33,922 nucleotides of DNA, from IMG/VR virus record IMGVR_UViG_2630968639_000008; one strand, 5' to 3'. A program made the position numbers and the translations under genes. A model generated the notes under the pieces. It was not told where the DNA came from, made no database searches, and worked only from the letters and a program-made list of their open reading frames with translations. Positions 2,373-28,715 of this stretch are shown here, one piece after another (position 1 is the stretch's first letter; each line of letters opens with the position of its first letter). Source of the stretch: a virus. Its lineage: Duplodnaviria > Heunggongvirae > Uroviricota > Caudoviricetes.

Positions 2373-3067
2373 TGCGAAAGTTTGTTAATGGAAAGGAAGC
2401 CGCCAAAGTTGCCGACGTTATTGCGAAACTTACAGCCGCTCAGGCATTTGCTGCATTTATCCTTCGTGATATCGGACGTCGGCTGATCATATTCATCCGC
2501 AACTGCCGGACCGTGATAACCGCACTCATCACCGCGATAGGTCCAGGTGCAGGTGTTGGCCAGCATGATACGTCCCGGAAAAACAGCGCCATCCGTTTCC
2601 GTCGGCGTGGACAGTACAAAGGAGGCACTCACCGCGCTCAGTTCGCTGCACTGCTCGATGCGCCAGCGGCTGATCACCTCCTGCTCCGGATCGGCGTCAC
2701 TGTTTCCGTTGATGAAGCTCACCGCATCCAGAAAACGGGCGTAAACCTTACGCCGGACCACCGTTCCGCCGACCAGACTCTGCAGATCTTCCGCCATCCC
2801 GGTGACCATACCGTACAGGTTAGAAACCGTCAGCGTGGGGCGCGTACTGGTGCCTTTGCCATTCAGTTCAAAACCACTCCCCTGAATGGGATACGGCTGA
2901 TACTGTCGCCGCTGCCAGGTGACCGGCTCACCTTTTTCGTTCTGCTCATTACAGAAAAAATAACGTTCTCCACCGACCTCTGTCAGGTCGATTTCCCAGA
3001 GCACCACGCTGGCCGACTGCTCCGCACGGGTGCATTCATTCAGTGTTTCCTGCCGGATATCCTGCAT
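2369..3067 (-). CDS. L: Tail tip assembly protein L (C-terminal Cys cluster)
   Basis: 232-aa ORF ending in CSKCLSGCKFRNN; length and order match lambda L. Confidence 0.9.
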   Translation of the reverse strand: MQDIRQETLNECTRAEQSASVVLWEIDLTEVGGERYFFCNEQNEKGEPVTWQRRQYQPYPIQGSGFELNGKGTSTRPTLTVSNLYGMVTGMAEDLQSLVGGTVVRRKVYARFLDAVSFINGNSDADPEQEVISRWRIEQCSELSAVSASFVLSTPTETDGAVFPGRIMLANTCTWTYRGDECGYHGPAVADEYDQPTSDITKDKCSKCLSGCKFRNNVGNFGGFLSINKLSQ

Positions 3068-3396
3068 CAGTTCACCACCTGTTCAAACTCTGCGCTGAAC
3101 TCAACACGCAGCATACTGACCCGCGACGACCATTTTGCGCAGGTCACCTTTATCTGCCTGTAACCATAAGGCGGCGTCCACAGAAAGGCCTTCCAGCCCC
3201 CGTGCTCAGCCAGAAACAACTCCAGCGCCGTGGCCTCCTCACGGGAGGCAGACAGCGTCACGCTGTACGTTTTCAGGTCAGCGTTCAGCCCGGCAGGCGC
3301 ACGCTGGGAATAGCCATCACCAAAGCGCACCTTTCTTACAGAAGGGGCCGAAGCCACATCCATACCGGGTTTCACTTTCCAGCGGAAGGTTTTCAT
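3067..3396 (-). CDS. M: Tail assembly protein M
   Basis: 109-aa ORF, same length and position as lambda M; 4-nt overlap with H. Confidence 0.9.
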   Translation of the reverse strand: MKTFRWKVKPGMDVASAPSVRKVRFGDGYSQRAPAGLNADLKTYSVTLSASREEATALELFLAEHGGWKAFLWTPPYGYRQIKVTCAKWSSRVSMLRVEFSAEFEQVVN

Positions 3397-5972
3397 CGTC
3401 CACCTCCGGAGAACAGGCCACCATCACGCATCTGTGTCTGAATTTCATCACGGGCACCCTTGCGGGCCATGTCATACACTGCCTTCATCATCTGTGGACC
3501 TGGCAGACCATTCGTACCGTCGTTCTGAATCACCACGTGATTGTTCTGATTAAAATTAATGCCTTCAGCCCGCCGCATCTGCGCCGGACTTCCGGCACCG
3601 CCCACATAACCACCTTCCGCATAGCCCCGCATCAGGCGGTACAGGTTGCCGACACCAATCCGGCTGGTTGCCTCCTTCGTGAAGACAAATTCACCACGGT
3701 GAACAATCCCCGCTGGCTCATATTTGCCGCCGGTTCCCGTAAATCCCCCGGTCGCAAAATGGAATTTCGCCGCAGCTGCCTGAATGGCTGTACCGCCTGA
3801 CGCGGATGCGCCGCCACCAACAGCCCCGCCAATGGCGCTGCCGATACTCCCGACAATCCCCACCATTGCCTGCTTAAGCAGAATTTCTGTCATCATGGAC
3901 AGCACGGAACGGGTGAAGCTGCGCCAGTTCTGCTCACTGCCGGTCAGCATCGCCGCCATATTCTGTGCAATACCATCAAAGGTCTGCGTGGCAGCACTTT
4001 TAACCTGCGACATACTGTCCGTGGCGCTCTCTTCCCACTCACTCCAGCCGGACTTCAGGCCTGCCATCCAGCTCCCGCGAAGCTGGTCTTCAGCCGCCCA
4101 GGTCTTTTTCTGCTCTGACATGACGTTATTCAGCGCCAGCGGATTATCGCCATACTGTTCCTTCAGGCGCTGTTCCGTGGCTTCCCGTTCTGCCTGCCGG
4201 TCAGTCAGCCCCCGGCTTTTCGCATCAATGGCGGCCCGTTTTGCCCGTTGCTGCTGTGCGAATTTATCCGCCTGCTGCGCCAGCGCGTTCAGGCGCTCCT
4301 GATACGTAACCTTGTCGCCAAGTGCAGCCAGCTGGCGTTTGTACTCCAGCGTCTCATCTTTATGCGCCAGCAGGGATTTCTCCTGTGCAGACAGCTGGCG
4401 ACGTTGCGCCGCCTCCTCCAGTACCGCGAACTGACTCTCCGCCTTCCACAAATCCCGGAGCTGCTGGCTGATTTTCTCATTTGCTCCGGCATGCCTCTCC
4501 AGCGTCCGGAGTTCAGCCTGAAGCGTCAGCAGGGCAGCATGAGCACTGTCTTCCTGACGATCGCCCGCAGACACCTTCACGCCGGACTGTTTCGGCTTTT
4601 TCAGCGTCGCTTCATAATCCTTTTTCGCTGCCGCCATCAGCGTGTTGTAATCTGCCTGCAGGATTTTTCCGTCTTTCAGTGCCTTGTTCAGTTCTTCCTG
4701 ACGGGCGGTATATTTCTCCAGCGGAGTCTGCAGACGTTCGTAAGCCTTCTGCGCCTCTTCGGTATATTTCAGCCGTGATGCCTCAGACTCAGCACGATCT
4801 TTTGCTGCCATCTCACTGGCCTTTTCAAGATCTGCCTGCAATGTGGCGGCTGAAAGACCAAGTTGCGCATTCGCCCTGTCCTCCCATGCGCCACGGAGAT
4901 TGGCAAGAAATGCTGAGGTTTTACCACGCCGGTGGCTCCGGCTCTGATACCACTGCCATTTCTTGTCCGCTTCATCAAAAGCCTTTTCTGCTTTCTCCAG
5001 CATTTCCCGGGCAGTGTCCGGGCGACCAATATCCAGCACCGAATCCCACATGGATTTAAATGCCCGTGCTGTCTTATCTGCCCAGGTCTCCAGCGTGCCC
5101 ATGTTATCTTTCAGGCGGCGGGTCTGGTCATCAAACCCTTTCCTTGCGGCCTCGTTCGCCGCCTGCAATGCCCCGGCTTCATCGCCGGAACGCTGCAACT
5201 GAGCAACATACGCAATCTGCTCCGCTGTCACGTTATGGAACTGGCGCGCCATCGCCGTCAGCCCCGACGTCGGGTCTGTGGTCAGCTTCCCGAAGGCTTC
5301 AGCAACCTTGTCCACCTCCACGCCCGATGCAGAGGAGAAACGCGCCACACTCTGGCTGATCGCCTCAAACTGCTCACCACCACGCACACCGGCATTCACC
5401 AGCGCCGTCAGAGACTCGCTGGTCTGGTTAAACGTCAGCCCTGCCGCCTGCCCGGCTCTGGACAGGACCAGCATACGATCTGCCGTCAGTCCCGCCTGAT
5501 TGCCGGAAAGGACCAGCGTTTTGTTGAAATCGGACAGGGTTGAGTTGCCCTGATACCAGGCATACGCCAGCGCACCGGTCGCCACCGCCAGCGAGGTGGC
5601 CCCCACCATCGGCAGGGTGATCGCACCGGCAAGCCCCCTGAACATGGGGATCATCCCGCCGAAGGAGTCCTTAACCTGACCACCCTGTTGCAGCAGGATC
5701 AGCCACGGACTTTGCCCGCCTGCAAGCTGCGTGGCCACGTCGGTGAACTGTGCAGGCAGCATACGCATGGCGGCTTTATACTGCCCGACGGAAATCCCCG
5801 CTTTCTGTGCAGCCAGCGCCTGTCGGCTCAGCGACTGTTCAACGACTGCCGCTGTTTTTTTCGCATCACTTTCCGTACCGGAAAAATGACGCCTGACTCT
5901 GGCCATCTGCTCGTCAAATCTGGCCGCATCCAGACTCAAATCAACGACCAGATCGCCTACCGGTTCAGCCAT
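3393..5972 (-). CDS. H: Tail tape measure protein H
   Basis: 859-aa ORF, coiled-coil rich with a Gly-rich C-terminal region; N- and C-terminal stretches match recalled lambda H. Numerous antisense ORFs inside it are treated as spurious. Confidence 0.9.
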   Translation of the reverse strand: MAEPVGDLVVDLSLDAARFDEQMARVRRHFSGTESDAKKTAAVVEQSLSRQALAAQKAGISVGQYKAAMRMLPAQFTDVATQLAGGQSPWLILLQQGGQVKDSFGGMIPMFRGLAGAITLPMVGATSLAVATGALAYAWYQGNSTLSDFNKTLVLSGNQAGLTADRMLVLSRAGQAAGLTFNQTSESLTALVNAGVRGGEQFEAISQSVARFSSASGVEVDKVAEAFGKLTTDPTSGLTAMARQFHNVTAEQIAYVAQLQRSGDEAGALQAANEAARKGFDDQTRRLKDNMGTLETWADKTARAFKSMWDSVLDIGRPDTAREMLEKAEKAFDEADKKWQWYQSRSHRRGKTSAFLANLRGAWEDRANAQLGLSAATLQADLEKASEMAAKDRAESEASRLKYTEEAQKAYERLQTPLEKYTARQEELNKALKDGKILQADYNTLMAAAKKDYEATLKKPKQSGVKVSAGDRQEDSAHAALLTLQAELRTLERHAGANEKISQQLRDLWKAESQFAVLEEAAQRRQLSAQEKSLLAHKDETLEYKRQLAALGDKVTYQERLNALAQQADKFAQQQRAKRAAIDAKSRGLTDRQAEREATEQRLKEQYGDNPLALNNVMSEQKKTWAAEDQLRGSWMAGLKSGWSEWEESATDSMSQVKSAATQTFDGIAQNMAAMLTGSEQNWRSFTRSVLSMMTEILLKQAMVGIVGSIGSAIGGAVGGGASASGGTAIQAAAAKFHFATGGFTGTGGKYEPAGIVHRGEFVFTKEATSRIGVGNLYRLMRGYAEGGYVGGAGSPAQMRRAEGINFNQNNHVVIQNDGTNGLPGPQMMKAVYDMARKGARDEIQTQMRDGGLFSGGGR

Positions 5973-10776: not shown

Positions 10777-12076
10777 TTACACTGGTGTGTTCAGCAAATC
10801 GTTAACGGCATCAGATGCCGGGTTACCTGCAGCCAGCGGTGCCGGTGCCCCCTGCATCAGACGATCCAGCGCAGTGTCACTGCGCGCCTGTGCACTCTGT
10901 GGTGCTGCGGCCAGAATGCGGCGGGCCGTTTCCACGGTCATACCGGGGGTTTCTGCCAGCACGCGGGCCTGTTCTTCGCGTCCGTGAGCCTCCTCACAGT
11001 TGAGGATCCCCATAATGCGGCTGTTTTCTGCCGCAACCGCTGCGGTGATCTGCGCGTTCACGTCCGGCTGCGCCGCGCTGGCGTTTTCGCCCTCCGTCGC
11101 TGGCACCACGTCAGTAACGTCAGCCTACGAAGCAGTGGCTGAAACAGTTGTTGATTGAGTCTCTTTGGTCATTCGCCCTCCTGAGAGACGGGATTTACGT
11201 GCATCCAGTGCATCACGCATGACGGTGATCGCATCGGTGCTGTTAACAAGTTCATCAGCCAGTCCGGCATCAATGGCCTCCTGACCGCTGTACACTGCAG
11301 CCTCGGTATCCAGCACAGCCTGCACGGACAGGCCGGTATATGCCGACACCTTCTGCGCAAACATCCGGCGGGTTGCATCCATCCGGGACTGCAGTGTCTC
11401 CCGGACGTCATCCGGAAGATGGCTGTAGGGGTTGCCATCCACCTTATGGCTGCCGCTGTAAATCAGCGTGATTTCCACGCCCTGTTTCTCCAGCGCAGCA
11501 CCGTAATTACTGTGAGCCATCATGACGCCGATGGAGCCTGTCCGGGCGGTCTGCGTGACCAGACGCCGGGAGGCGGCGCTGGCAAGCAGCTGACCTGCAC
11601 TGCAGTTCATGTCGTTGGCCAGCGCCCATACCGGTTTTATGTCTCGCACACGGGCGATGATGTCAGCACAGTCAAATGCTCCCGCCACCATCCCGCCCGG
11701 TGTGTCCATATCGAGCAGAATGCCGTCCACCATCGGATCGCTGGCAGCCTGTTGCAGACGGGCGATAATGCCGTTGTAACCGGTCATTCCCGAATACGGC
11801 TGCAGCGCCCGCGTCCGGCTGACCAGCGTACCGGACACCGGCAGCACGGCGATGCCGTTCATGACCTGATAACTGCGGGCCTGTCGTGGTCCGTCATCAT
11901 CACCGGATAACGCCAGCGCCGCGGGTGCCTCTCCGGCAGTCAGGCTGTCGCCGGACACCGCATCCGTCAGGCGACTGATCCCAAGCTGGCCTGCAAGCGC
12001 ACAAAAGAAAATCCGCGCATAGGCGGGTTCAAGCATCAGCGGCTCATTAAAAGCCATGCTGGCAATATGCGGGAGA

Positions 12077-12096
<20 letters not shown>
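10777..12096 (-). pseudogene. C: Prohead protease/scaffold gene C with nested Nu3, interrupted by a single in-frame TAG at 11127..11125
   Basis: GTG start at 12096..12094 preceded by GGAGGAG; the frame is otherwise continuous to the stop at 10777 (439 codons, lambda C length). Reading across the TAG gives ...TVSATAS*ADVTDVVPATEGE... Uninterrupted segments are 11125..12096 and 10777..11109. Would be functional only with amber suppression. Confidence 0.75.
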
Positions 12097-15777
<3,681 letters not shown>

Positions 15778-16906: not shown

Positions 16907-17268
16907 ACATCCCGGTTTCTTCCACCATCGCACCGGAAAAGCGACTATGAGGGTAACCCTGCGTCTGTCAGCACAGTAAAACCCGGTGTGCATCGTTTTT
17001 GATTATTCCCGCACACTCACGCAGAAGGAATTCCCCGTCGGGCTACGGTCATGGTTAATGCGGGAATACGGCGACGATACAGCGCAGCTAAAAGGGTAAT
17101 AGACGGATAGACCGATTTATTTCATTCCACAGGATTCTGAGTGTCCCCAACTTCCTCCAATAGTCTGAGCGTACACCTATATAGTTTTAATTTTCATCAA
17201 TCCATTTAACTATCGTTTAATTGTTGTCACATAGGATTCTGCCGTTTTTAACAATGCAGGATAATAAG

Positions 17269-17562
17269 ATGAAAAAAATGTTGTTTTCTGCCGCTCTGGC
17301 AATGCTTATTACAGGATGTGCTCAACAGACGTTTACTGTTGGAAACAAACCTACAGCAGTAACACCAAAGGAAACCATCACCCATCATTTCTTCGTTTCG
17401 GGAATTGGACAGGAGAAAACTGTTGATGCAGCCAAAATTTGTGGCGGCGCAGAAAATGTTGTTAAAACAGAAACCCAGCAAACATTCGTAAATGGATTTC
17501 TCGGTTTTATTACTTTAGGCATTTATACTCCGCTGGAAGCGCGTGTGTATTGCTCACAATAA
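17269..17562 (+). CDS. bor: Bor lipoprotein (serum-resistance type lysogenic-conversion protein)
   Basis: Track ORF trimmed to ATG at 17269: MKKMLFSAALAMLITGCAQQ... has a signal peptide and lipobox (LITGC); 97 aa; antisense to the lysis genes as in lambda. Confidence 0.85.
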   Translation: MKKMLFSAALAMLITGCAQQTFTVGNKPTAVTPKETITHHFFVSGIGQEKTVDAAKICGGAENVVKTETQQTFVNGFLGFITLGIYTPLEARVYCSQ

Positions 17563-17593
17563 TTGCATGAGTTGCCCATCGATATGGGCAGCT

Positions 17594-18055
17594 CTATCTG
17601 CACTGCTCATTAATATACTTCTGGGTTCCTTCCAGTTGTTTTTGCATAGTGATCAGCCTCTCTCTGAGGGTGAAATAATCCCATTCAGCGGTGTCTGCCA
17701 GTCGGGGGGAGGCTGCATTATCCACGCCGGAGGCGGTGGTGGCTTCACGCACTGACTGACAGACTGCTTTGATGTGCAACCGACGACGACCAGCGGCAAC
17801 ATCATCACGCAGAGCATCATTTTCAGCTTTCGCATTAGCTAACTCCTTCGTGTATTTTTCATCCAGTGCAGCAACATCACGCTGGCGCATCTGCATGTCA
17901 GTAATTGCCGCGTTCGCCAGCTTCAGTTCTCTGGCATTTTTGTCGCGCTGGGCTTTGTAGGTAATGGCGTTATCACGGTAATGATTAACAGCCCATGACA
18001 GGCAGACGATGATGCAGATAACCAGAGCGGAGATAATCGCGGTTACTCTGTTCAT
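17594..18055 (-). CDS. Rz: Spanin inner-membrane subunit Rz
   Basis: 153-aa ORF with an N-terminal TM segment and coiled coil; matches lambda Rz; ATGA overlap with R. Confidence 0.9.
17653..17835 (-). CDS. Rz1: Spanin outer-membrane lipoprotein Rz1 (embedded in the +1 frame of Rz)
   Basis: 60-aa [26 protein letters not shown]... with lipobox (VVGC) and a proline-rich stretch, lying wholly inside Rz. Confidence 0.85.
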
Positions 18056-18549
18056 TGCTTACCCCACAAACAGATTTCACGCTCAATCTCACGACGAGTC
18101 ATGAGACCTTTCCATTGCTTACCGCCAGCATATGTCCAGCGACGTAGCTGATCACATGCGCCTTTGATATCACCCTGGTTTATTTTGCGAAGAAGCGTCG
18201 ATATTCTGAAATTGCCAGCACCCACGTTGTAGACGAACGAGTAAAGAGCGCCGCGCGTTGTTTCCGGTATATCGACTTTGATGTACGGGTTAATTTGTCT
18301 GGCGACAGTGGCAAGGTCTTTATTCAGGAGGGCTTTGCATTCTGCTTCGGTATACGTTTTACCGGGAATGATGTCTTTTCCTGTATGCCCGTGACATACA
18401 GTCCATACGCCAACGATATCTTTATATGGTATGTAGCTGACACCTTCCAGACCATCGTCACCACTCGGACCAGTGATGAGCACAGACGCTATGGCAACAG
18501 CCCCACCACCAATAGCAGCTGCTACAGCCTTGCGTAATGATGGCGACAT
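18052..18549 (-). CDS. R: SAR endolysin (phage 21 R-type lysozyme)
   Basis: 165 aa; N-terminal Gly/Ala-rich weakly hydrophobic segment ([20 protein letters not shown]) typical of a signal-anchor-release domain, followed by a lysozyme core with the E...D...T motif region ([24 protein letters not shown]). Not the lambda R transglycosylase. Confidence 0.85.
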
Positions 18550-18764
18550 TATTCACCTCTCGCAGCCTTACGCTTATCTTCTTTAATCTTGAAATAAAGG
18601 TTTGTCAGGTACGTCAGCAGGCCAAATACCAGGCTACCCAGCACTCCAATTGCCGCCCACTGTGAGGGCGTGACTTTATCTAGCAGCTGTAAAAACCAGT
18701 ACCCGGCACTACCTGCTGAGGTGCCATAGGCGACACCCGTTGTTAACTTATCCATGGATTTCAT
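18549..18764 (-). CDS. S: Pinholin (phage 21 S-type), dual-start motif MKSM
   Basis: 71 aa with two TM segments and Met1/Met4 dual start (holin/antiholin); immediately upstream of the SAR endolysin. Confidence 0.85.
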
Positions 18765-18874
18765 AACCCCACCTCGCAGACAAAGCGGGTGTAAATTGAG
18801 GGAATACTACGAAACGTAACAGACTCGGAGTCAGTGAATAACTCAGGTATTGGGTTATCAGCTAATATCGAGAC

Positions 18875-18909
18875 TCAAAAAATGGAAAAACCCGCTCGAC
18901 GGCGGGTTT
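18875..18909 (-). terminator. Candidate intrinsic terminator or attenuator upstream of S on the late strand
   Basis: Stem AAACCCGC / GCGGGTTT (18888-18895, 18902-18909), loop TCGACG, followed on the minus strand by TTTCCATTTTTT. Confidence 0.4.
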
Positions 18910-19336
18910 AAGCTGTGTGACGAAGTAACCACTCTTAACAGCATAACCAATTTTTTACGTACGTAAACCACTAAATGATATTTGCGAGAATGCTACCGAG
19001 TATTGAAAACACCACTACAAATACATAAGCAAATCTCAACAAATAACCAACAAATAATTTCCAGTGTTATTTTCAGCCGGTTTAAATTGAACCTTCAAAT
19101 TATAGAGCACTTATAAATAACAGCCGTTAATATAAATTGGCTAATAGATTTATTTTTATTCAGCCAAGAGCCATGAATAGGATTCGATAGAAAAAAGTTC
19201 AGATAAAAATAGAGATCTACTTCACAAATCAAACGAGAAACCAAAACTTACATCTTGAAATAATCACATTGATTAGATGAATATTTATCGCGCAGTGACA
19301 TCATTTTTTAATAATAGTTCAAAAAAAGGGCTCACG

Positions 19337-20434
19337 ATGAAAAAATTAACAGTGGCAATTTCTGCTGTAGCTGCATCAGTACTGATGGCGATGTCTGCTC
19401 AGGCAGCTGAAATTTATAATAAAGACAGTAACAAGCTGGATCTGTACGGGAAAGTTAATGCTAAGCACTACTTCTCCTCTAATGATGCAGATGATGGTGA
19501 TACTACTTATGCCCGTCTTGGCTTCAAAGGTGAAACCCAAATCAACGATCAACTGACTGGTTTCGGTCAGTGGGAATATGAATTCAAAGGCAACCGCGCT
19601 GAATCTCAAGGTTCCTCCAAAGATAAAACCCGTCTTGCCTTCGCTGGCCTGAAATTCGGTGACTACGGCTCCATCGATTACGGCCGTAACTACGGTGTAG
19701 CATACGACATCGGTGCGTGGACTGACGTCCTGCCAGAATTCGGTGGTGACACTTGGACTCAAACCGACGTGTTCATGACTCAACGTGCAACTGGTGTTGC
19801 AACCTATCGTAACAACGACTTCTTTGGTCTGGTTGATGGTCTGAATTTTGCTGCTCAGTACCAAGGCAAAAACGATCGTAGCGATTTCGATAACTACACT
19901 GAAGGTAACGGTGATGGCTTCGGTTTCTCTGCTACCTATGAATACGAAGGATTCGGTATCGGTGCAACTTATGCGAAATCTGATCGTACCGACACTCAAG
20001 TTAATGCAGGGAAAGTTCTTCCTGAAGTATTTGCTTCCGGTAAAAATGCAGAAGTTTGGGCCGCAGGTCTGAAATATGACGCTAACAACATTTACCTGGC
20101 CACTACCTATTCTGAAACCCAGAATATGACTGTATTTGCTGATCACTTCGTTGCTAATAAAGCCCAAAACTTCGAAGCTGTTGCACAATATCAGTTCGAT
20201 TTCGGTCTGCGTCCGTCCGTTGCTTACCTGCAATCTAAAGGTAAGGATCTTGGAGTATGGGGCGATCAGGACTTAGTCAAATATGTTGATGTAGGTGCAA
20301 CCTATTACTTCAACAAAAATATGTCTACTTTCGTTGATTACAAAATCAACCTGCTTGACAAAAATGACTTCACTAAAGCACTCGGTGTAAGCACTGATGA
20401 CATCGTTGCTGTAGGTCTGGTTTACCAGTTCTAA
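19337..20434 (+). CDS. OmpC/OmpF-family general porin (prophage NmpC/Lc-type), apparently intact
   Basis: 365 aa from ATG 19337 (track ORF starts upstream): signal peptide [29 protein letters not shown], porin beta-barrel hallmarks, C-terminal ...VGLVYQF; long AT-rich promoter region upstream; antisense to Q and S as in DLP12 nmpC. Confidence 0.85.
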
Positions 20435-20571
20435 TCTGATTACGAAAAAGATATGTTGCGGGAGACGTTGCCTCCCCAACATATAAGTGGCTCCCTCAAG
20501 CCACTTCCTTTAGAAGCACAACCTTGCTTCTAACTATATAAACCTTCTGTTATATATTACCCTTTATTTTT

Positions 20572-20606
20572 GGGGGCGTCTCAACGCCCCATTTTTAATA
20601 ATTTTT
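20572..20606 (+). terminator. Rho-independent terminator downstream of the porin gene
   Basis: Stem GGGGCG / CGCCCC (20573-20578, 20585-20590) followed by ATTTTTAATAATTTTT. Confidence 0.55.
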
Positions 20607-20623
20607 AGTAAACAATTGGCATA

Positions 20624-21007
20624 TTAATTAGAGTTATTAACAACGATATCCATCTCTAACCGGATATCTAATGCCATTAACATCCCTTCAATTATGCCCT
20701 CAGCCTTCTGTAACCTTTTCCCGATATAACCATCAGAGCAGCAATGCTTACCTGCCAGTGACATGAATGTCATACCGACTACATAATAATCTACTAATAA
20801 ATCGTGCAAATCGCTGTTGTTCTTTTTCAGACGGGCCATGCACCCGCAAATGATCATCGCGTCATCGTCACAACATTGCGGGCGAGATTTTACTTTTGAA
20901 GTAATTAATCCCTTAAAACCGGCGGCAATGGACGACCAGGTCACATCTTCATGATTATTAGCCGCCCACGCTCCCCAACGCTCAAGAACCATCTGAATAT
21001 CACGCAT
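20624..21007 (-). CDS. Q: Late-gene antiterminator Q (phage 82 / DLP12 QuuD-like)
   Basis: Trimmed to ATG 21007 ([21 protein letters not shown]...), 127 aa, Cys-rich ([27 protein letters not shown]); upstream of the lysis cassette on the same strand. Confidence 0.7.
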
Positions 21008-21229
21008 CAACTTACTCCACAAAAATCAGACCAGAACGCCAATTACAAGCAAAAATCAATAAAACAGTATTAGTTGATTGTTATCTCTGACTTCATACTC
21101 CTGCTCCTGTCAGGGTTTTGGCGTAATTCCTCAGTATTCGGTAATCGGTCAAAACAGAACTGGGGAAACGATATAAGCGCAGGCGCATCCAGCGGTGGCG
21201 AAGAAGTTCTGCCATATAAAACTCAAACA

Positions 21230-21592
21230 TCATTCATCTCCCAGTTCAGTGATGGTCAGCTCCAGCTTTCCACCTTTGACAACCGGCATCTTCACAACGC
21301 GGTAATCAACGATCTGAGCATCATCCAGCCAGAAACCTGCTTTGGTGAGTGCGTCAAAAGAGGCTTTTTGTAGATTATCCAGGTCACGGCGACGGCGATC
21401 CGGCATGTGGCACTCAATGCGGATTTTCACAGGCATAGCCAGACCGATATCCAGCATTGAGCCTTTAATGATTCGGGCGACGTTATCGCGGTATGCCTGC
21501 CCTTCTGCGCTGATGTGCGTGCGCCCTCGATTATGGCGGTAGTAGCGGTTATTGCTCGGCGGCCAGGGTAGTGTGATGTGGTAAGTATTCAC
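21230..21592 (-). CDS. rusA: Holliday junction resolvase RusA
   Basis: 120-aa [29 protein letters not shown]... with the acidic catalytic region ([10 protein letters not shown]); matches recalled DLP12 RusA. Confidence 0.85.
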
Positions 21593-21879
21593 GCCTTAAT
21601 TACCCCCTCTTTCAGCCAGATAACCTGCGTTCTCGCCATACCTTCCAGCGCGCATTCTTTTGCATATCCAGCGTCAACAAAATGCGTGCGGCGGTCGATT
21701 TCGTCGTGGCAGGCAGAACATGCAATGGTGGCAATCAGGTCTGGCGGTTTCGTACCGGTGCCGCACAATCCAGTCAGCCGGATATGTGCCAGTACAGACG
21801 TTTCAGGGTTGCCATTACATACGCCAGGGATTCTTACCTGGCATTCCCGACCACGCGCTGCTTTTCTCAAATCAGCCAT
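21589..21879 (-). CDS. ybcO: YbcO-like nin-region protein (Cys-rich, putative nuclease)
   Basis: Trimmed to ATG 21879 with GGAGGAG upstream; 96 aa; CxxC...CxxC pattern; ATGA-type coupling with rusA. Confidence 0.6.
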
Positions 21880-22042
21880 GACTCCTCCTTGCTGCCAGTC
21901 GCAACCATTTTTTATCAACCAAGCTGGCGGTATATCCGAGCAGTGTTGGTATTTCGGATGGCTTCAGCTCAGGCTTACGCTTACGACGATTTGGTACTCT
22001 GTAGATGTGTCCGTTCATGACACGAATAAGCGGTGTAGCCAT
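21872..22042 (-). CDS. ninE: NinE-like small basic protein
   Basis: 56-aa reading from ATG 22042 (overlapping the ybcN stop as TAATG); C-terminal [10 protein letters not shown] resembles lambda NinE. Confidence 0.5.
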   Translation of the reverse strand: MATPLIRVMNGHIYRVPNRRKRKPELKPSEIPTLLGYTASLVDKKWLRLAARRSHG

Positions 22043-22718: not shown

Positions 22719-23120
22719 TTATTTTAACTCATAGATCAGACAGTCAACGATTTCTAAACCATTTACCATAGAATTAGAAACGCGAACTTTACCATCGTTG
22801 ACTCTAGCAAATCCTTTTAACATTTTATAAATAAAAGCTGAATCCCCCTTAGCCTCAATTGCTTCTAATGGTATCGGCTTATACTTTTTTGATATGCTAT
22901 TTCTATTTATCTCACTGATTTTTCTATATATTTCTGCCGGTCCACGTTCTGAGAAGTCACTGATAACTAAAATATATCTCCAAGATAGATCTGGGTAATA
23001 AAACCACATTGCAGCATCAATAGTTAAATTCTGTAACTTGAGTTTTTTTAATAAAAATTGACCTGAGAATTCCATATCTTTTGTCAACTCTCTGCCGATT
23101 ACCAGTGTGCTTTTACCCAT
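22719..23120 (-). CDS. Hypothetical protein, downstream partner of the HEPN-like gene (overlapping, translationally coupled)
   Basis: 133-aa ORF; ATG at 23120 with GGAG 9 nt upstream; overlaps the upstream gene by 22 nt; AT-rich codon usage; no motif recognised. Confidence 0.5.
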   Translation of the reverse strand: MGKSTLVIGRELTKDMEFSGQFLLKKLKLQNLTIDAAMWFYYPDLSWRYILVISDFSERGPAEIYRKISEINRNSISKKYKPIPLEAIEAKGDSAFIYKMLKGFARVNDGKVRVSNSMVNGLEIVDCLIYELK

Positions 23121-23515
23121 TTCAAAACTCCAGAATTTTGGTCACCTACAGCATCAAACAATTGTTCGGCCATAGCTTTACTTATGTTATTGTCGTATCT
23201 AAATTGCTCGCTCCAGTCTTTAACGACCGACCAGTTAATCTCCAACGAAACATCATTTTTTGCGTCAGCAATCAAAATTTGATGTAAGTTGGCAATTTTG
23301 AGAAGTTGCGACAAATCATGAGTATATGAATCATTTACGACTTTTTTGTTTGGAAACTCATGTTGTAAAAATGACTTGGCAATACAGGCCTTCAATGCAC
23401 ATTCAACTGCATACCCACAAAGATAATATGCACCATGAAAAAAGCCATGATCAAGCAAGCATTTGGCCTCATTAAGCCTAGTGTCAGATAATGCTTCAAG
23501 GTCGTTTTTATTCAT
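23099..23515 (-). CDS. HEPN-domain-like protein (candidate toxin or abortive-infection nuclease)
   Basis: 138-aa ORF; helical pattern GAYYLCGYAVECALKACIAKSF, THDLSQLL and C-terminal RYDNN resemble HEPN four-helix-bundle proteins; AT-rich; TATAAT sits immediately upstream of the ATG. Confidence 0.55.
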   Translation of the reverse strand: MNKNDLEALSDTRLNEAKCLLDHGFFHGAYYLCGYAVECALKACIAKSFLQHEFPNKKVVNDSYTHDLSQLLKIANLHQILIADAKNDVSLEINWSVVKDWSEQFRYDNNISKAMAEQLFDAVGDQNSGVLKWVKAHW

Positions 23516-23979: not shown

Positions 23980-24474
23980 TCATTTCCAATTGCAAGACTG
24001 TGAAATTTTTTCCACAACCTTATCAATCTCAGACAAGTCAAACTCAACTACTTGCATAGTTGATCCATAAGGTTCAAACCCAAAAATAGCTTTTTTATGC
24101 TTAGCCAAGGTCTTTATAAATTGTATTGGTTGTGGAGCAAATGCAGAATCACCGCCTTCCCCACCACCCCAAACACTCTTGACCGGCTTTCCGCCATCTA
24201 ACCGCACTGTAATTCTTGGGTTGTCCGAACCCATATAATCATTGAATGATAAATAGGCATCTGTTTTGTTATCACTACAACGCAACACCAGTGAAGTTGC
24301 ACGATCAGTACCTGCTTTGTTATATGAATCTGGTGATAAATTAAGAGCCACAAAGTCAGTCTGGTCAGTCATTTTATTTATCTCAGACTTTGTTATCCAC
24401 GGCCCTAACTTCTCTACACCAGCATTTGCTGTAAACGAGGCACTTATGACAAAGGCTAAAATAAATTTTCTCAT
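23980..24474 (-). CDS. Hypothetical secreted/periplasmic protein (moron)
   Basis: 164-aa ORF with a signal peptide (MRKFILAFVISASFTANA/GVEK), AGGAGA RBS 8 nt upstream, own terminator; AT-rich. Confidence 0.6.
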   Translation of the reverse strand: MRKFILAFVISASFTANAGVEKLGPWITKSEINKMTDQTDFVALNLSPDSYNKAGTDRATSLVLRCSDNKTDAYLSFNDYMGSDNPRITVRLDGGKPVKSVWGGGEGGDSAFAPQPIQFIKTLAKHKKAIFGFEPYGSTMQVVEFDLSEIDKVVEKISQSCNWK

Positions 24475-27302: not shown

Positions 27303-27412
27303 TATCAATTCCTATTGGTATTGCAATGAATAAATAATAGCAATGCGTATTAACCCAAGCAATAGCAAAACGTGTTTTGACCATCAATACGCAAGCGTAT
27401 AAATTAAAACTT
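27303..27412. promoter_or_regulatory. Right operator/promoter region (OR): three related 14-bp operator sites with candidate pR and pRM
   Basis: Sites ATAGCAATGCGTAT (27337-27350), ATAGCAAAACGTGT (27362-27375), ATACGCAAGCGTAT (27387-27400, perfect palindrome), spaced 25 bp. Candidate pR on minus strand: -35 TTGCTT (27362..27357), 17-bp spacer, -10 TATTAT (27339..27334). Candidate pRM on plus strand: -35 TTGACC (27377-27382), -10 TAAATT (27400-27405), placing the start near the cI ATG. Confidence 0.6.
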
Positions 27413-28105
27413 ATGAAAAAAGAAACTCTTGCTGATCGCTTAAACCTAGCGATGGAACAATCTGGAATGTCTCAAGGCGCTCTTGCAAAGGCGTCTGGCG
27501 TAGCTCAACCCACAATCTGGAGACTGACAAGCGGCAACGCGCGCGGCTCAACAAAAATTGTTGAAATAGCTAATGCATTGGGTGTTCGAACAGAATGGCT
27601 CTCATCAGGCATAGGCCCGATGAGAAATGACGGTCAACAATCAGGGAAGCCTGCTGTCAGCCATTCAAAATACTTCAAGATTGACGTTCTTGATATAGAA
27701 GTCAGTGCCGGACCGGGTGTCATCAACCGTGAGTTTGTGGAAGTTCTACGCTCGGTTGAGTACTCGTTTGACGATGCTCGTCACATGTTCGATGGCAGGA
27801 AGGCGGAAAATATCCGCATTATTAACGTGCGCGGTGACAGCATGTCAGGGACGATCGAACCAGGTGACCTGCTGTTCGTTGATATCACTGTTAAATCTTT
27901 CGACGGTGATGGCATCTATGCGTTTCTGTACGACGACACTGCCCATGTAAAACGTCTTCAAATGATGAAGGATAAGCTGCTGGTTATCTCTGATAACAAG
28001 AGCTACTCGCCGTGGGACCCGATCGAGAAAGACGAGATGAACCGGGTGTTCATATTCGGTAAGGTCATTGGAAGCATGCCGCAGACGTACAGGAAGCATG
28101 GTTAA
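27413..28105 (+). CDS. cI: CI-type prophage repressor (HTH plus S24 LexA-like autopeptidase domain)
   Basis: 230 aa from ATG 27413; N-terminal HTH (MSQGALAKASGVAQPTIWRL); Ala-Gly cleavage site (EVSAGPGV), Ser in RGDSMSG and Lys in HVKRLQ; divergent from cro. Confidence 0.85.
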   Translation: MKKETLADRLNLAMEQSGMSQGALAKASGVAQPTIWRLTSGNARGSTKIVEIANALGVRTEWLSSGIGPMRNDGQQSGKPAVSHSKYFKIDVLDIEVSAGPGVINREFVEVLRSVEYSFDDARHMFDGRKAENIRIINVRGDSMSGTIEPGDLLFVDITVKSFDGDGIYAFLYDDTAHVKRLQMMKDKLLVISDNKSYSPWDPIEKDEMNRVFIFGKVIGSMPQTYRKHG

Positions 28106-28334: not shown

Positions 28335-28715
28335 ATGAGAAAAATCCTAATCGCTGCCATGATGGCATCTCTATTGGCTGGGTGTGCTTCTTCAGGCAAC
28401 CAGCAACTCAAAAATGAAACTGAAACTAGTGTCCAGTCTAAACTTCAGGAAGGTAAAACAACCAAGAATGAGGTTAAATCTTACTTTGGTTCTCCTGATG
28501 CTGTTTCATATACTGACAGTGGAAACGAGATCTGGAAGTACGCCTTTGCAAAAGTAAAAGTTAATGGCACCACTTTTATTCCATTCTATGGATTATTCCA
28601 TAATGGAACGAACGGTACGAAAAAAGAACTTACTATTCTTTTTAACGATGACACGATTAAGAAATACACAATGTCAGAAACCCAAATAAACTCGAAATCA
28701 GGTTGGGCTGACTGA
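28335..28715 (+). CDS. Hypothetical lipoprotein downstream of cI (rex-position moron)
   Basis: 126 aa; signal peptide and lipobox (LLAGC); AT-rich; same strand as cI; followed by a terminator; mid-region resembles a BamE/SmpA_OmlA-like fold only loosely. Confidence 0.6.
   Translation: MRKILIAAMMASLLAGCASSGNQQLKNETETSVQSKLQEGKTTKNEVKSYFGSPDAVSYTDSGNEIWKYAFAKVKVNGTTFIPFYGLFHNGTNGTKKELTILFNDDTIKKYTMSETQINSKSGWAD

Follow-up and report, generated by a model that had tools for sequence, protein, structure and literature searches.

The outer membrane porin genes nmpC and lc have been described since the 1970s-80s and are found in lambdoid phages, e.g. PA-2, and in the cryptic prophage DLP12 of Escherichia coli K-12. 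In PA-2, for which lysogenic conversion has been shown, the lc gene (outer membrane protein 2, J02580) is flanked by the lysis genes at one end and by the Q side at the other. In K-12, the nmpC gene (b0553) of DLP12 has a quuD-type antiterminator gene Q, the lysis genes essD, rrrD and rzpD, and borD as neighbours. Phage lambda also carries independently transcribed lysogenic-conversion genes, or morons, in its late region (bor and lom), and in the Shiga toxin (Stx) phages the gene of the antiterminator Q933 is abutted by a late promoter-terminator unit, pR'-tR'. In the present study, a stretch of 33,922 nucleotides (nt) from a Caudoviricetes virus record (IMG/VR IMGVR_UViG_2630968639_000008), called the window here at its full length, was analysed with respect to a porin gene at 19337-20434. 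Judged from its sequence, this gene is very probably nmpC/lc in an intact form; nmpC/lc codes for a general-diffusion porin and forms a self-contained cassette, or moron, in PA-2 and other lambdoid phages and in DLP12.

The gene was found to encode a complete porin. Its start was taken at MKKL, as in the PA-2 record and in RefSeq, whereas the mechanically listed open reading frame (ORF) runs further, to an ATG at 19277. The protein covers the Pfam Porin_1 profile (PF00267) from end to end (1-337/337) with 523 bits against a threshold of 23.7, and it stands above the cut-off of the NCBIfam OmpC subfamily (529.8 against 484); the NCBIfam equivalog cut-offs of PhoE and OmpF were not reached. For the comparison with K-12, the DLP12 nmpC fragments flanking IS5B in NC_000913.3 were translated and joined, the insertion sequence IS5 being removed in silico. 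The window porin is identical to this reconstructed NmpC at 365/365 residues, and no internal defect was found in the ORF in this alignment. Its identity to PA-2 Lc (J02580) is 98.9% (361/365), the four residue changes between the two proteins being R99H, Q149G, A151T and V154F. In K-12 nmpC and in the laboratory phage 434B, IS5 is inserted after codon 346 at CTAA, whereas the same CTAA is uninterrupted in the window.

Identity to OmpC, OmpF and PhoE is about 62-66%. The window porin shares with them the family, the length, the PEFGG motif of the L3 constriction loop (LPEFGGDTW) and the C-terminal YQF (VYQF). It differs from them in its surface loops, where the long L4 insertion of OmpC is absent, and in being borne on a prophage with its own AT-rich control region. 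The N-terminal Sec signal peptide of 23 residues has an AXA site and is identical to the annotated signal peptide of Lc. The mature porin (residues 24-365) aligns end to end with the solved chains of OmpC, OmpK36, PhoE and OmpF (PDB sequence search; E about 1e-137); an NmpC/Lc entry was not found among the matches of this search. From this end-to-end alignment, NmpC would be exported and assembled as a trimeric 16-stranded beta-barrel. Phage copies of the porin are also named 'OmpD' by annotation pipelines, after the Salmonella porin; ompD is a chromosomal gene and is not known to lie in a lambdoid late region. The preliminary description of this DNA, made from its letters without database searches, had proposed a full-length OmpC/OmpF-family porin of 365 amino acids with a signal peptide, in the arrangement of PA-2 Lc and DLP12 nmpC, which reads through where the K-12 copy is disrupted by an insertion sequence. 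The alignments with NmpC, Lc and OmpC given above agree with this proposal on every point and revealed no hidden defect.

The likeness to the known systems extends to the whole interval between Q and the holin gene S. This interval (1859 bp) is 99.7% identical to that of K-12 DLP12, with the same neighbours on both sides, and 96.9% identical in DNA to that of PA-2, from which it is also distinguished by a 16-nt indel near S. In porin-less phages, the S homology with the window stops 16 nt upstream of the S ATG and the Q homology stops about 50 nt before the Q stop. Because the homology of these phages ends at the S and Q edges, the segment from about 18781 to about 20650 can be taken as the porin module. 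The cassette has its own promoter and terminator, is distinct in composition and is absent from otherwise homologous phages, as a moron is. The 572-bp spacer upstream of the porin has 35% GC, with 30% in 18971-19336, as compared to 44% in the porin coding sequence and 51% in the window. The Q protein of the window shares 78% identity with Q933 (about 120-126 residues aligned); the likeness runs through residue 120, after which the window protein diverges and ends 17 residues earlier. The divergent part (residues 121-127, window 20624-20650) coincides with the edge of the porin module, as would be expected if the cassette insertion replaced the Q end. A distant match of the window Q to Q21 structures was also obtained.

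On the other side of the porin gene, the 189-bp spacer between nmpC and Q folds more stably than shuffled controls (z = -7.54 on the + strand and -6.05 on the - strand). Its hairpins end in a T-run on either strand, at 20573-20606 for nmpC and at 20484-20445 for the Q transcript. The nmpC terminator starts 139 nt past the porin stop, and the hairpin of the - strand, having a bulged stem, was not flagged by a simple terminator scan. Compared with Rfam (E <= 1), the region 17000-22000 yielded two sub-threshold chance matches (Trp_leader with 20.8 bits, and a plant miRNA), and no known RNA family was found in the spacers. The position of the porin between Q and the lysis genes on the opposite strand (Q, S, R and Rz are all on the - strand), the AT-rich upstream region and the downstream terminator, all stated in the preliminary description, were recovered in this analysis.

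The porin cassette most likely separates Q from its cognate late promoter, pR'. The segment 18968-18886 gave an 83-nt match (E = 5e-14) to the unit just downstream of Q933, which covers the -35, the -10 and the early transcribed region, and the same segment matches sequence that, in unrelated phages, adjoins Q or follows it at a short distance. In an Stx2c phage that has the q933 allele, this match to the window block already starts within Q, 14 nt from its 3' end, and the unit reads on the late strand as TTTACG-N16-TATCAT, followed by the conserved stretch TAAGAGTGGTTAC... and by a hairpin with a T-run. The transcription start site (TSS) of the Stx phage was set 7 nt after the -10 of this motif; counted from there, the junction of GU and AUU falls on +173, and the second terminator ends at +258. 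The pR' transcript of the Stx phages, StxS, is marked by an RNase E site at +173 and a 3' end at +258, as mapped by differential RNA sequencing (dRNA-seq), Term-seq and RNase E mapping (PMC7547250). Since both of these marks are reproduced exactly, the promoter assignment in the Stx phage is validated.

In the window, the -35, the -10, the early block and the first hairpin of the Stx-phage unit are conserved; the tR'-like hairpin is at 18909-18888 on the - strand, with the T-run continuing to about 18880. The two arrangements differ in the placing of the cargo. In the Stx phages the unit abuts Q and is followed, past tR', by stx on the late strand, whereas the window has 1.7 kb of opposite-strand cargo upstream of pR' and lacks the 3' part of StxS (a 258-nt RNA), to which a 74-nt small RNA belongs. 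The window has one exact copy of the pR' core motif, and 1699 nt separate it from the Q stop, as compared to 30 nt in the Stx2c phage; a pR' directly downstream of Q was not found, and comparison of the window sequence showed nothing near Q (20435-20623) that resembles the Stx pR'-tR' unit. Moreover, the pR'-like block is 100% invariant in six porin modules which are otherwise 87-99.7% identical. This block also occurs in the phages phiP27 and mEp460_4F5, at a distance from Q of 1377 and 1577 nt, respectively; the Q proteins of both phages are members of the same family (45-48% identity). The cargo between Q and the block is a 409-amino-acid protein annotated as GIY-YIG nuclease in phiP27 (2501-3917 of the extracted locus) and an unannotated opposite-strand ORF of 308 amino acids in mEp460_4F5 (2501-4117 of the extracted locus).

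As the sole Q933-type pR' homologue lies on the S side of the porin gene, the Q-dependent late transcript most likely has its start beyond the porin gene, on the way to S, and does not run through the gene, nmpC and pR' being divergent. The gene had been described as antisense to late transcription; its + strand orientation stands, whereas a late transcript of the - strand running across the porin is not supported by the position of the homologue (18968-18880), there being nothing similar by Q. Only read-through of the early rightward (Q-gene, pR-type) transcript would converge on nmpC, and the cluster of hairpins and terminators would separate the two.

In the canonical arrangement of lambda, pR' lies directly downstream of Q. 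If the same layout held here, the late transcript would run antisense through the porin to S, and 18968-18880 would be a downstream terminator or a remnant. The promoter placement is based on homology, as consensus scans cannot decide the pR' site. A scan at 9/12 gave no promoter of the - strand in either spacer, and annotation of pR' and tR' was not found in the detailed record of phage 434B. Some observations weigh against the placement on the S side. The pR'-like promoter is weak (-10 TATGCT, 8/12), and a relaxed scan at 8/12 gives candidates in both spacers, including two weak hexamer pairs near Q on the - strand, where the hairpin 20484-20445 could act as tR'. The pR' RNA of the Stx phages (258 nt) extends as far as the second terminator, whereas the window keeps only the first hairpin, so the efficiency of termination at this hairpin is uncertain. 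A further point comes from the K-12 DLP12 lysis-cassette reporter, which is numbered -121..+650 and drives lysis-gene expression. Its forward primer maps to 19390-19409 (-), and its reverse primer fits K-12 essD only approximately. The numbering implies a '+1' near 19288 (-); this site overlaps PnmpC, and the predicted TSS at 18933 follows about 355 nt further downstream. As the '+1', too, falls in the porin-S spacer and not in the porin coding sequence, it gives no help to the antisense reading; it does show that the promoter structure of the spacer is not settled. The reporter fragment is wholly within the porin-S spacer and the first 73 nt of nmpC, which argues against a late promoter by Q, as do the lack of any likeness to the pR' unit in 20435-20623 against the strong match of 18968-18886, the invariance of the block among porin modules and its company with Qs of the same family in phages with other cargo in between. 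The lambda-type layout is hence considered unlikely.

Two further points touch the same spacer. The first 'CRP binding site' of the 1986 PA-2 record maps to about 18913-18933, which is the conserved +1..+21 of the pR'-type transcript (GTGGTTACTTCGTCACACAGC, late strand), and it may more likely be part of a Q-binding or pause region than a CRP site of the porin. In addition, it can be speculated, as a tentative proposal with the odds against it, that cargo is inserted recurrently where a Q933-family Q meets its cognate pR'; that, in the porin module, where PnmpC and pR' share a 30%-GC region, host regulators (CRP, OmpR and IHF) could co-regulate the porin and basal lysis-gene expression; and that the pR' transcript of about 50 nt could be a small RNA distinct from StxS.

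Only three differences were found between the window and K-12 in the porin-S spacer (18985, 19051 and 19074), and all of them are upstream of -199. In K-12, deletion of precisely the segment -199..-1 (PnmpC), or a terminator placed after PnmpC, abolishes nmpC-driven transcription, and a sigma-70 start was mapped by 5' rapid amplification of cDNA ends (5'RACE); CRP, OmpR and IHF sites are also listed for nmpC (PMC11677980). The porin gene has the codon usage of a highly expressed E. coli gene, with a frequency of optimal E. coli codons (Fop) of 0.74 as compared to 0.44-0.59 in ten neighbouring phage genes. Among five phage/prophage porin alleles, the first ~170 residues are almost invariant; porin alleles of other phages are about 92% identical. 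The differences cluster at residues 182-190, 219-236, 268-272, 308-315 and 340-352, and the indels of OmpC/OmpF fall in the same places; we take these five patches to be the surface loops L4-L8 on the topology of OmpC/OmpF. Such a pattern, with a constant N-terminal half and variable loops, appears typical of an exposed and selected protein. In wild strains, NmpC was present in the outer-membrane proteomes of 89% of uropathogenic E. coli (UPEC) isolates (PMC9609314), and in CFT073 the nmpC genes were preferentially expressed at 37 C, with strong induction at both RNA and protein level (PMC12890032). The nmpC mRNA was reported as a RybB target, in a paper which describes nmpC as an E. coli gene similar to ompD (PMC3333887).

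We infer a functional porin gene whose own promoter drives its expression in the lysogen, because -199..-1 is identical to the active K-12 promoter, the gene has its own terminator and a Fop of 0.74, and the protein has been detected in wild strains. Host sigma-70 RNA polymerase would transcribe nmpC in the lysogen independently of phage repression, and NmpC would add to or replace OmpC/OmpF, leading to an altered permeability and an altered set of surface receptors. Lc expression lowers the level of OmpC, the PA-2 receptor, so that PA-2 is excluded. Against expression in the lysogen, nmpC is termed 'quiescent' in E. coli B in the title of Prilipov et al. 1998, and the intactness of a gene does not imply its expression under every condition. 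The gene of the window may then be intact owing to recent descent rather than function and yet silent, a passenger with no effect on the outer membrane, and the decay in the surrounding prophage, whose head protease gene has an in-frame stop, would fit such a passenger. On the other hand, the 199 promoter-proximal bp are the same as those of a promoter active in K-12, the codon bias is strongly toward that of highly expressed genes, most UPEC isolates have the NmpC protein, which in CFT073 is under thermoregulation, and across phages the N-terminal half is invariant with the changes in surface loops. These observations make a silent passenger quite improbable.

The gene is long known and very common, i.e. 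real but ordinary. The 1859-bp Q-S interval was matched in 4044 of the 5426 complete E. coli genomes, with a coverage of at least 80% in 2465, which puts the share of complete E. coli genomes having this arrangement at about 45-75%; many sequenced phages have it as well. It was found in 43 phage records, including PA-2, 434B, mEp332 and many recent lambdoid phages, and the propagation hosts listed in such records include E. coli C, ECOR13 and MG1655. The exact porin sequence occurs on at least 1000 public contigs under names such as 'outer membrane porin protein LC' and 'putative outer membrane porin protein NmpC'. A 100-bp probe over the intact IS5 target matched 746 genomes at a coverage of at least 80%, which is an undercount as this region of the gene is allelically variable. 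The nmpC::IS5 junction probe matched 285 genomes, and the 40 matches listed were all of 100% and look, by name, like K-12 or laboratory strains. Hence, intact nmpC looks like the rule and the IS5 disruption like a peculiarity of the K-12 laboratory lineage. The laboratory phage 434B (OL657227, 2208-5799) has a Q-nmpC::IS5-S region of the K-12 type, labelled 'region of 434 nonhomology' in its record, and the phage apparently acquired this region from DLP12 through recombination when it was grown on K-12.

A chromosomal paralogue of the host ompC, merely lying within a prophage remnant rather than being phage cargo, might be suggested by the identity of about 65% to OmpC/PhoE, the host-like codon usage and the NCBIfam assignment to the OmpC subfamily, yet this origin has a negligible probability and is already refuted, as the same Q-porin-S unit occurs in at least 36 sequenced phage genomes and PA-2, and the unit of the window is inside a near-complete lambdoid prophage.

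The features of the late-control region and of the porin module are collected in Table 1.

Table 1. Coordinates of the porin gene, its control elements and the adjoining late genes in the window
Feature	Position	Strand	Basis
nmpC/lc porin coding sequence	19337..20434	+	intact, 365 amino acids; full-length Porin_1; matches NmpC/Lc
Porin signal peptide	19337..19405	+	23 codons, cleavage between AQA and AE; same as J02580 sig_peptide
CTAA, IS5 target	20373..20376	+	occupied in K-12 and phage 434B; unbroken in the window
nmpC promoter region, -199..-1	19138..19336	+	100% identical to K-12 PnmpC by alignment; TSS position from K-12 literature
Second CRP site of the PA-2 record, equivalent sequence TAGAGATCTACTTCACAAATC	19209..19229		mapped by alignment from J02580 feature 1363-1383; putative
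AT-rich divergent control region, pR'-like promoter to nmpC	18971..19336		30% GC
pR'-like late promoter	18940..18967	-	-35 TTTACG 18967-18962, 16-nt spacer, -10 TATGCT 18945-18940; predicted TSS A18933; homology to Q933 pR'
Conserved early transcribed block and hairpin AAACCCGC...GCGGGTTT with T-run (tR'-like)	18880..18933	-	about 115 nt before the S start codon
Intrinsic terminator of nmpC (GGGGCGT-CTCA-ACGCCCC then ATTTTTAATAATTTTT)	20573..20606	+	scan and fold
Terminator-like hairpin with CTTTTT, Q-transcript strand, abutting the nmpC 3' end	20445..20484	-	sequence and fold
Spacer between convergent nmpC and Q, 189 bp, five consecutive predicted hairpins	20435..20623		fold z-scores
Antiterminator Q (QuuD type, 127 amino acids, Q933 family)	20624..21007	-	Phage_antitermQ; RefSeq start
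S21-type holin/antiholin	18549..18764	-	profile match; essD in the twin-locus annotation
Endolysin (lysozyme, RrrD type)	18052..18549	-	profile match
Rz spanin, with embedded Rz1 lipoprotein ORF 17653-17835	17594..18055	-	profile match

The window is 99.99% identical to the ETEC1746 prophage, which is beside dsdC and has a TorI-type excisionase at its end. In the ETEC1746 prophage, bor/iss is split by IS66, whereas the window is without IS66. Sequence like that of DLP12 (96-97%) is confined in the window to the bor-lysis-porin-Q-nin segment and a few short patches. In comparison to DLP12, the window prophage is near full length, and the site of its twin strain, beside dsdC, is not the DLP12 site. 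Judged from these comparisons, the window is a different, nearly full-length lambdoid prophage which carries a late-control and porin module of the DLP12 type. It also holds a second lysogenic-conversion gene, an intact bor/iss serum-resistance lipoprotein gene at 17266-17562 (+), which is a homologue of lambda bor. The porin resembles bor and lom of lambda as a late-region gene of this kind and differs from them in position and in the class of the product, which is a porin rather than a lipoprotein or a small barrel.

Some other genes of the prophage are recorded here. The S49-family head protease/scaffold gene at 10777-12231 (-) has a single in-frame stop (...TVSATAS*ADVTDV...) and is given as a pseudogene in the identical RefSeq prophage; because of this stop, the prophage may be unable to make heads and virions. 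In the nin region, at 22719-23515 (-), a HEPN-domain protein (138 amino acids, Pfam 27.8 bits) overlaps an ORF of 133 amino acids without a Pfam match, and the two are possibly a toxin-antitoxin or defence pair of the HEPN type. A protein of 164 amino acids at 23980-24474 (-), in the replication/nin region, has a marginal match to VasI/TagO, which is associated with type VI secretion (26.7 bits against a cut-off of 26.5). At 28335-28715 (+), a protein of 126 amino acids, named BamE in RefSeq (Pfam BamE 22 bits, just below the cut-off), adjoins the CI-type repressor gene at 27377-28105. It is possible that this BamE-like protein is an envelope lipoprotein expressed by the prophage, in the position of lambda rexAB.

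As a discovery, the present finding has little weight, since the exact protein is already in the databases and intact copies are usual outside the K-12 lineage. A modest but useful point arises for the annotation of DLP12-type prophages, in which the Q-dependent late promoter is most likely between the porin gene and S. For the lysogen, an extra general porin can alter the permeability to antibiotics and nutrients, the surface antigenicity, and the sensitivity to porin-dependent phages and colicins.

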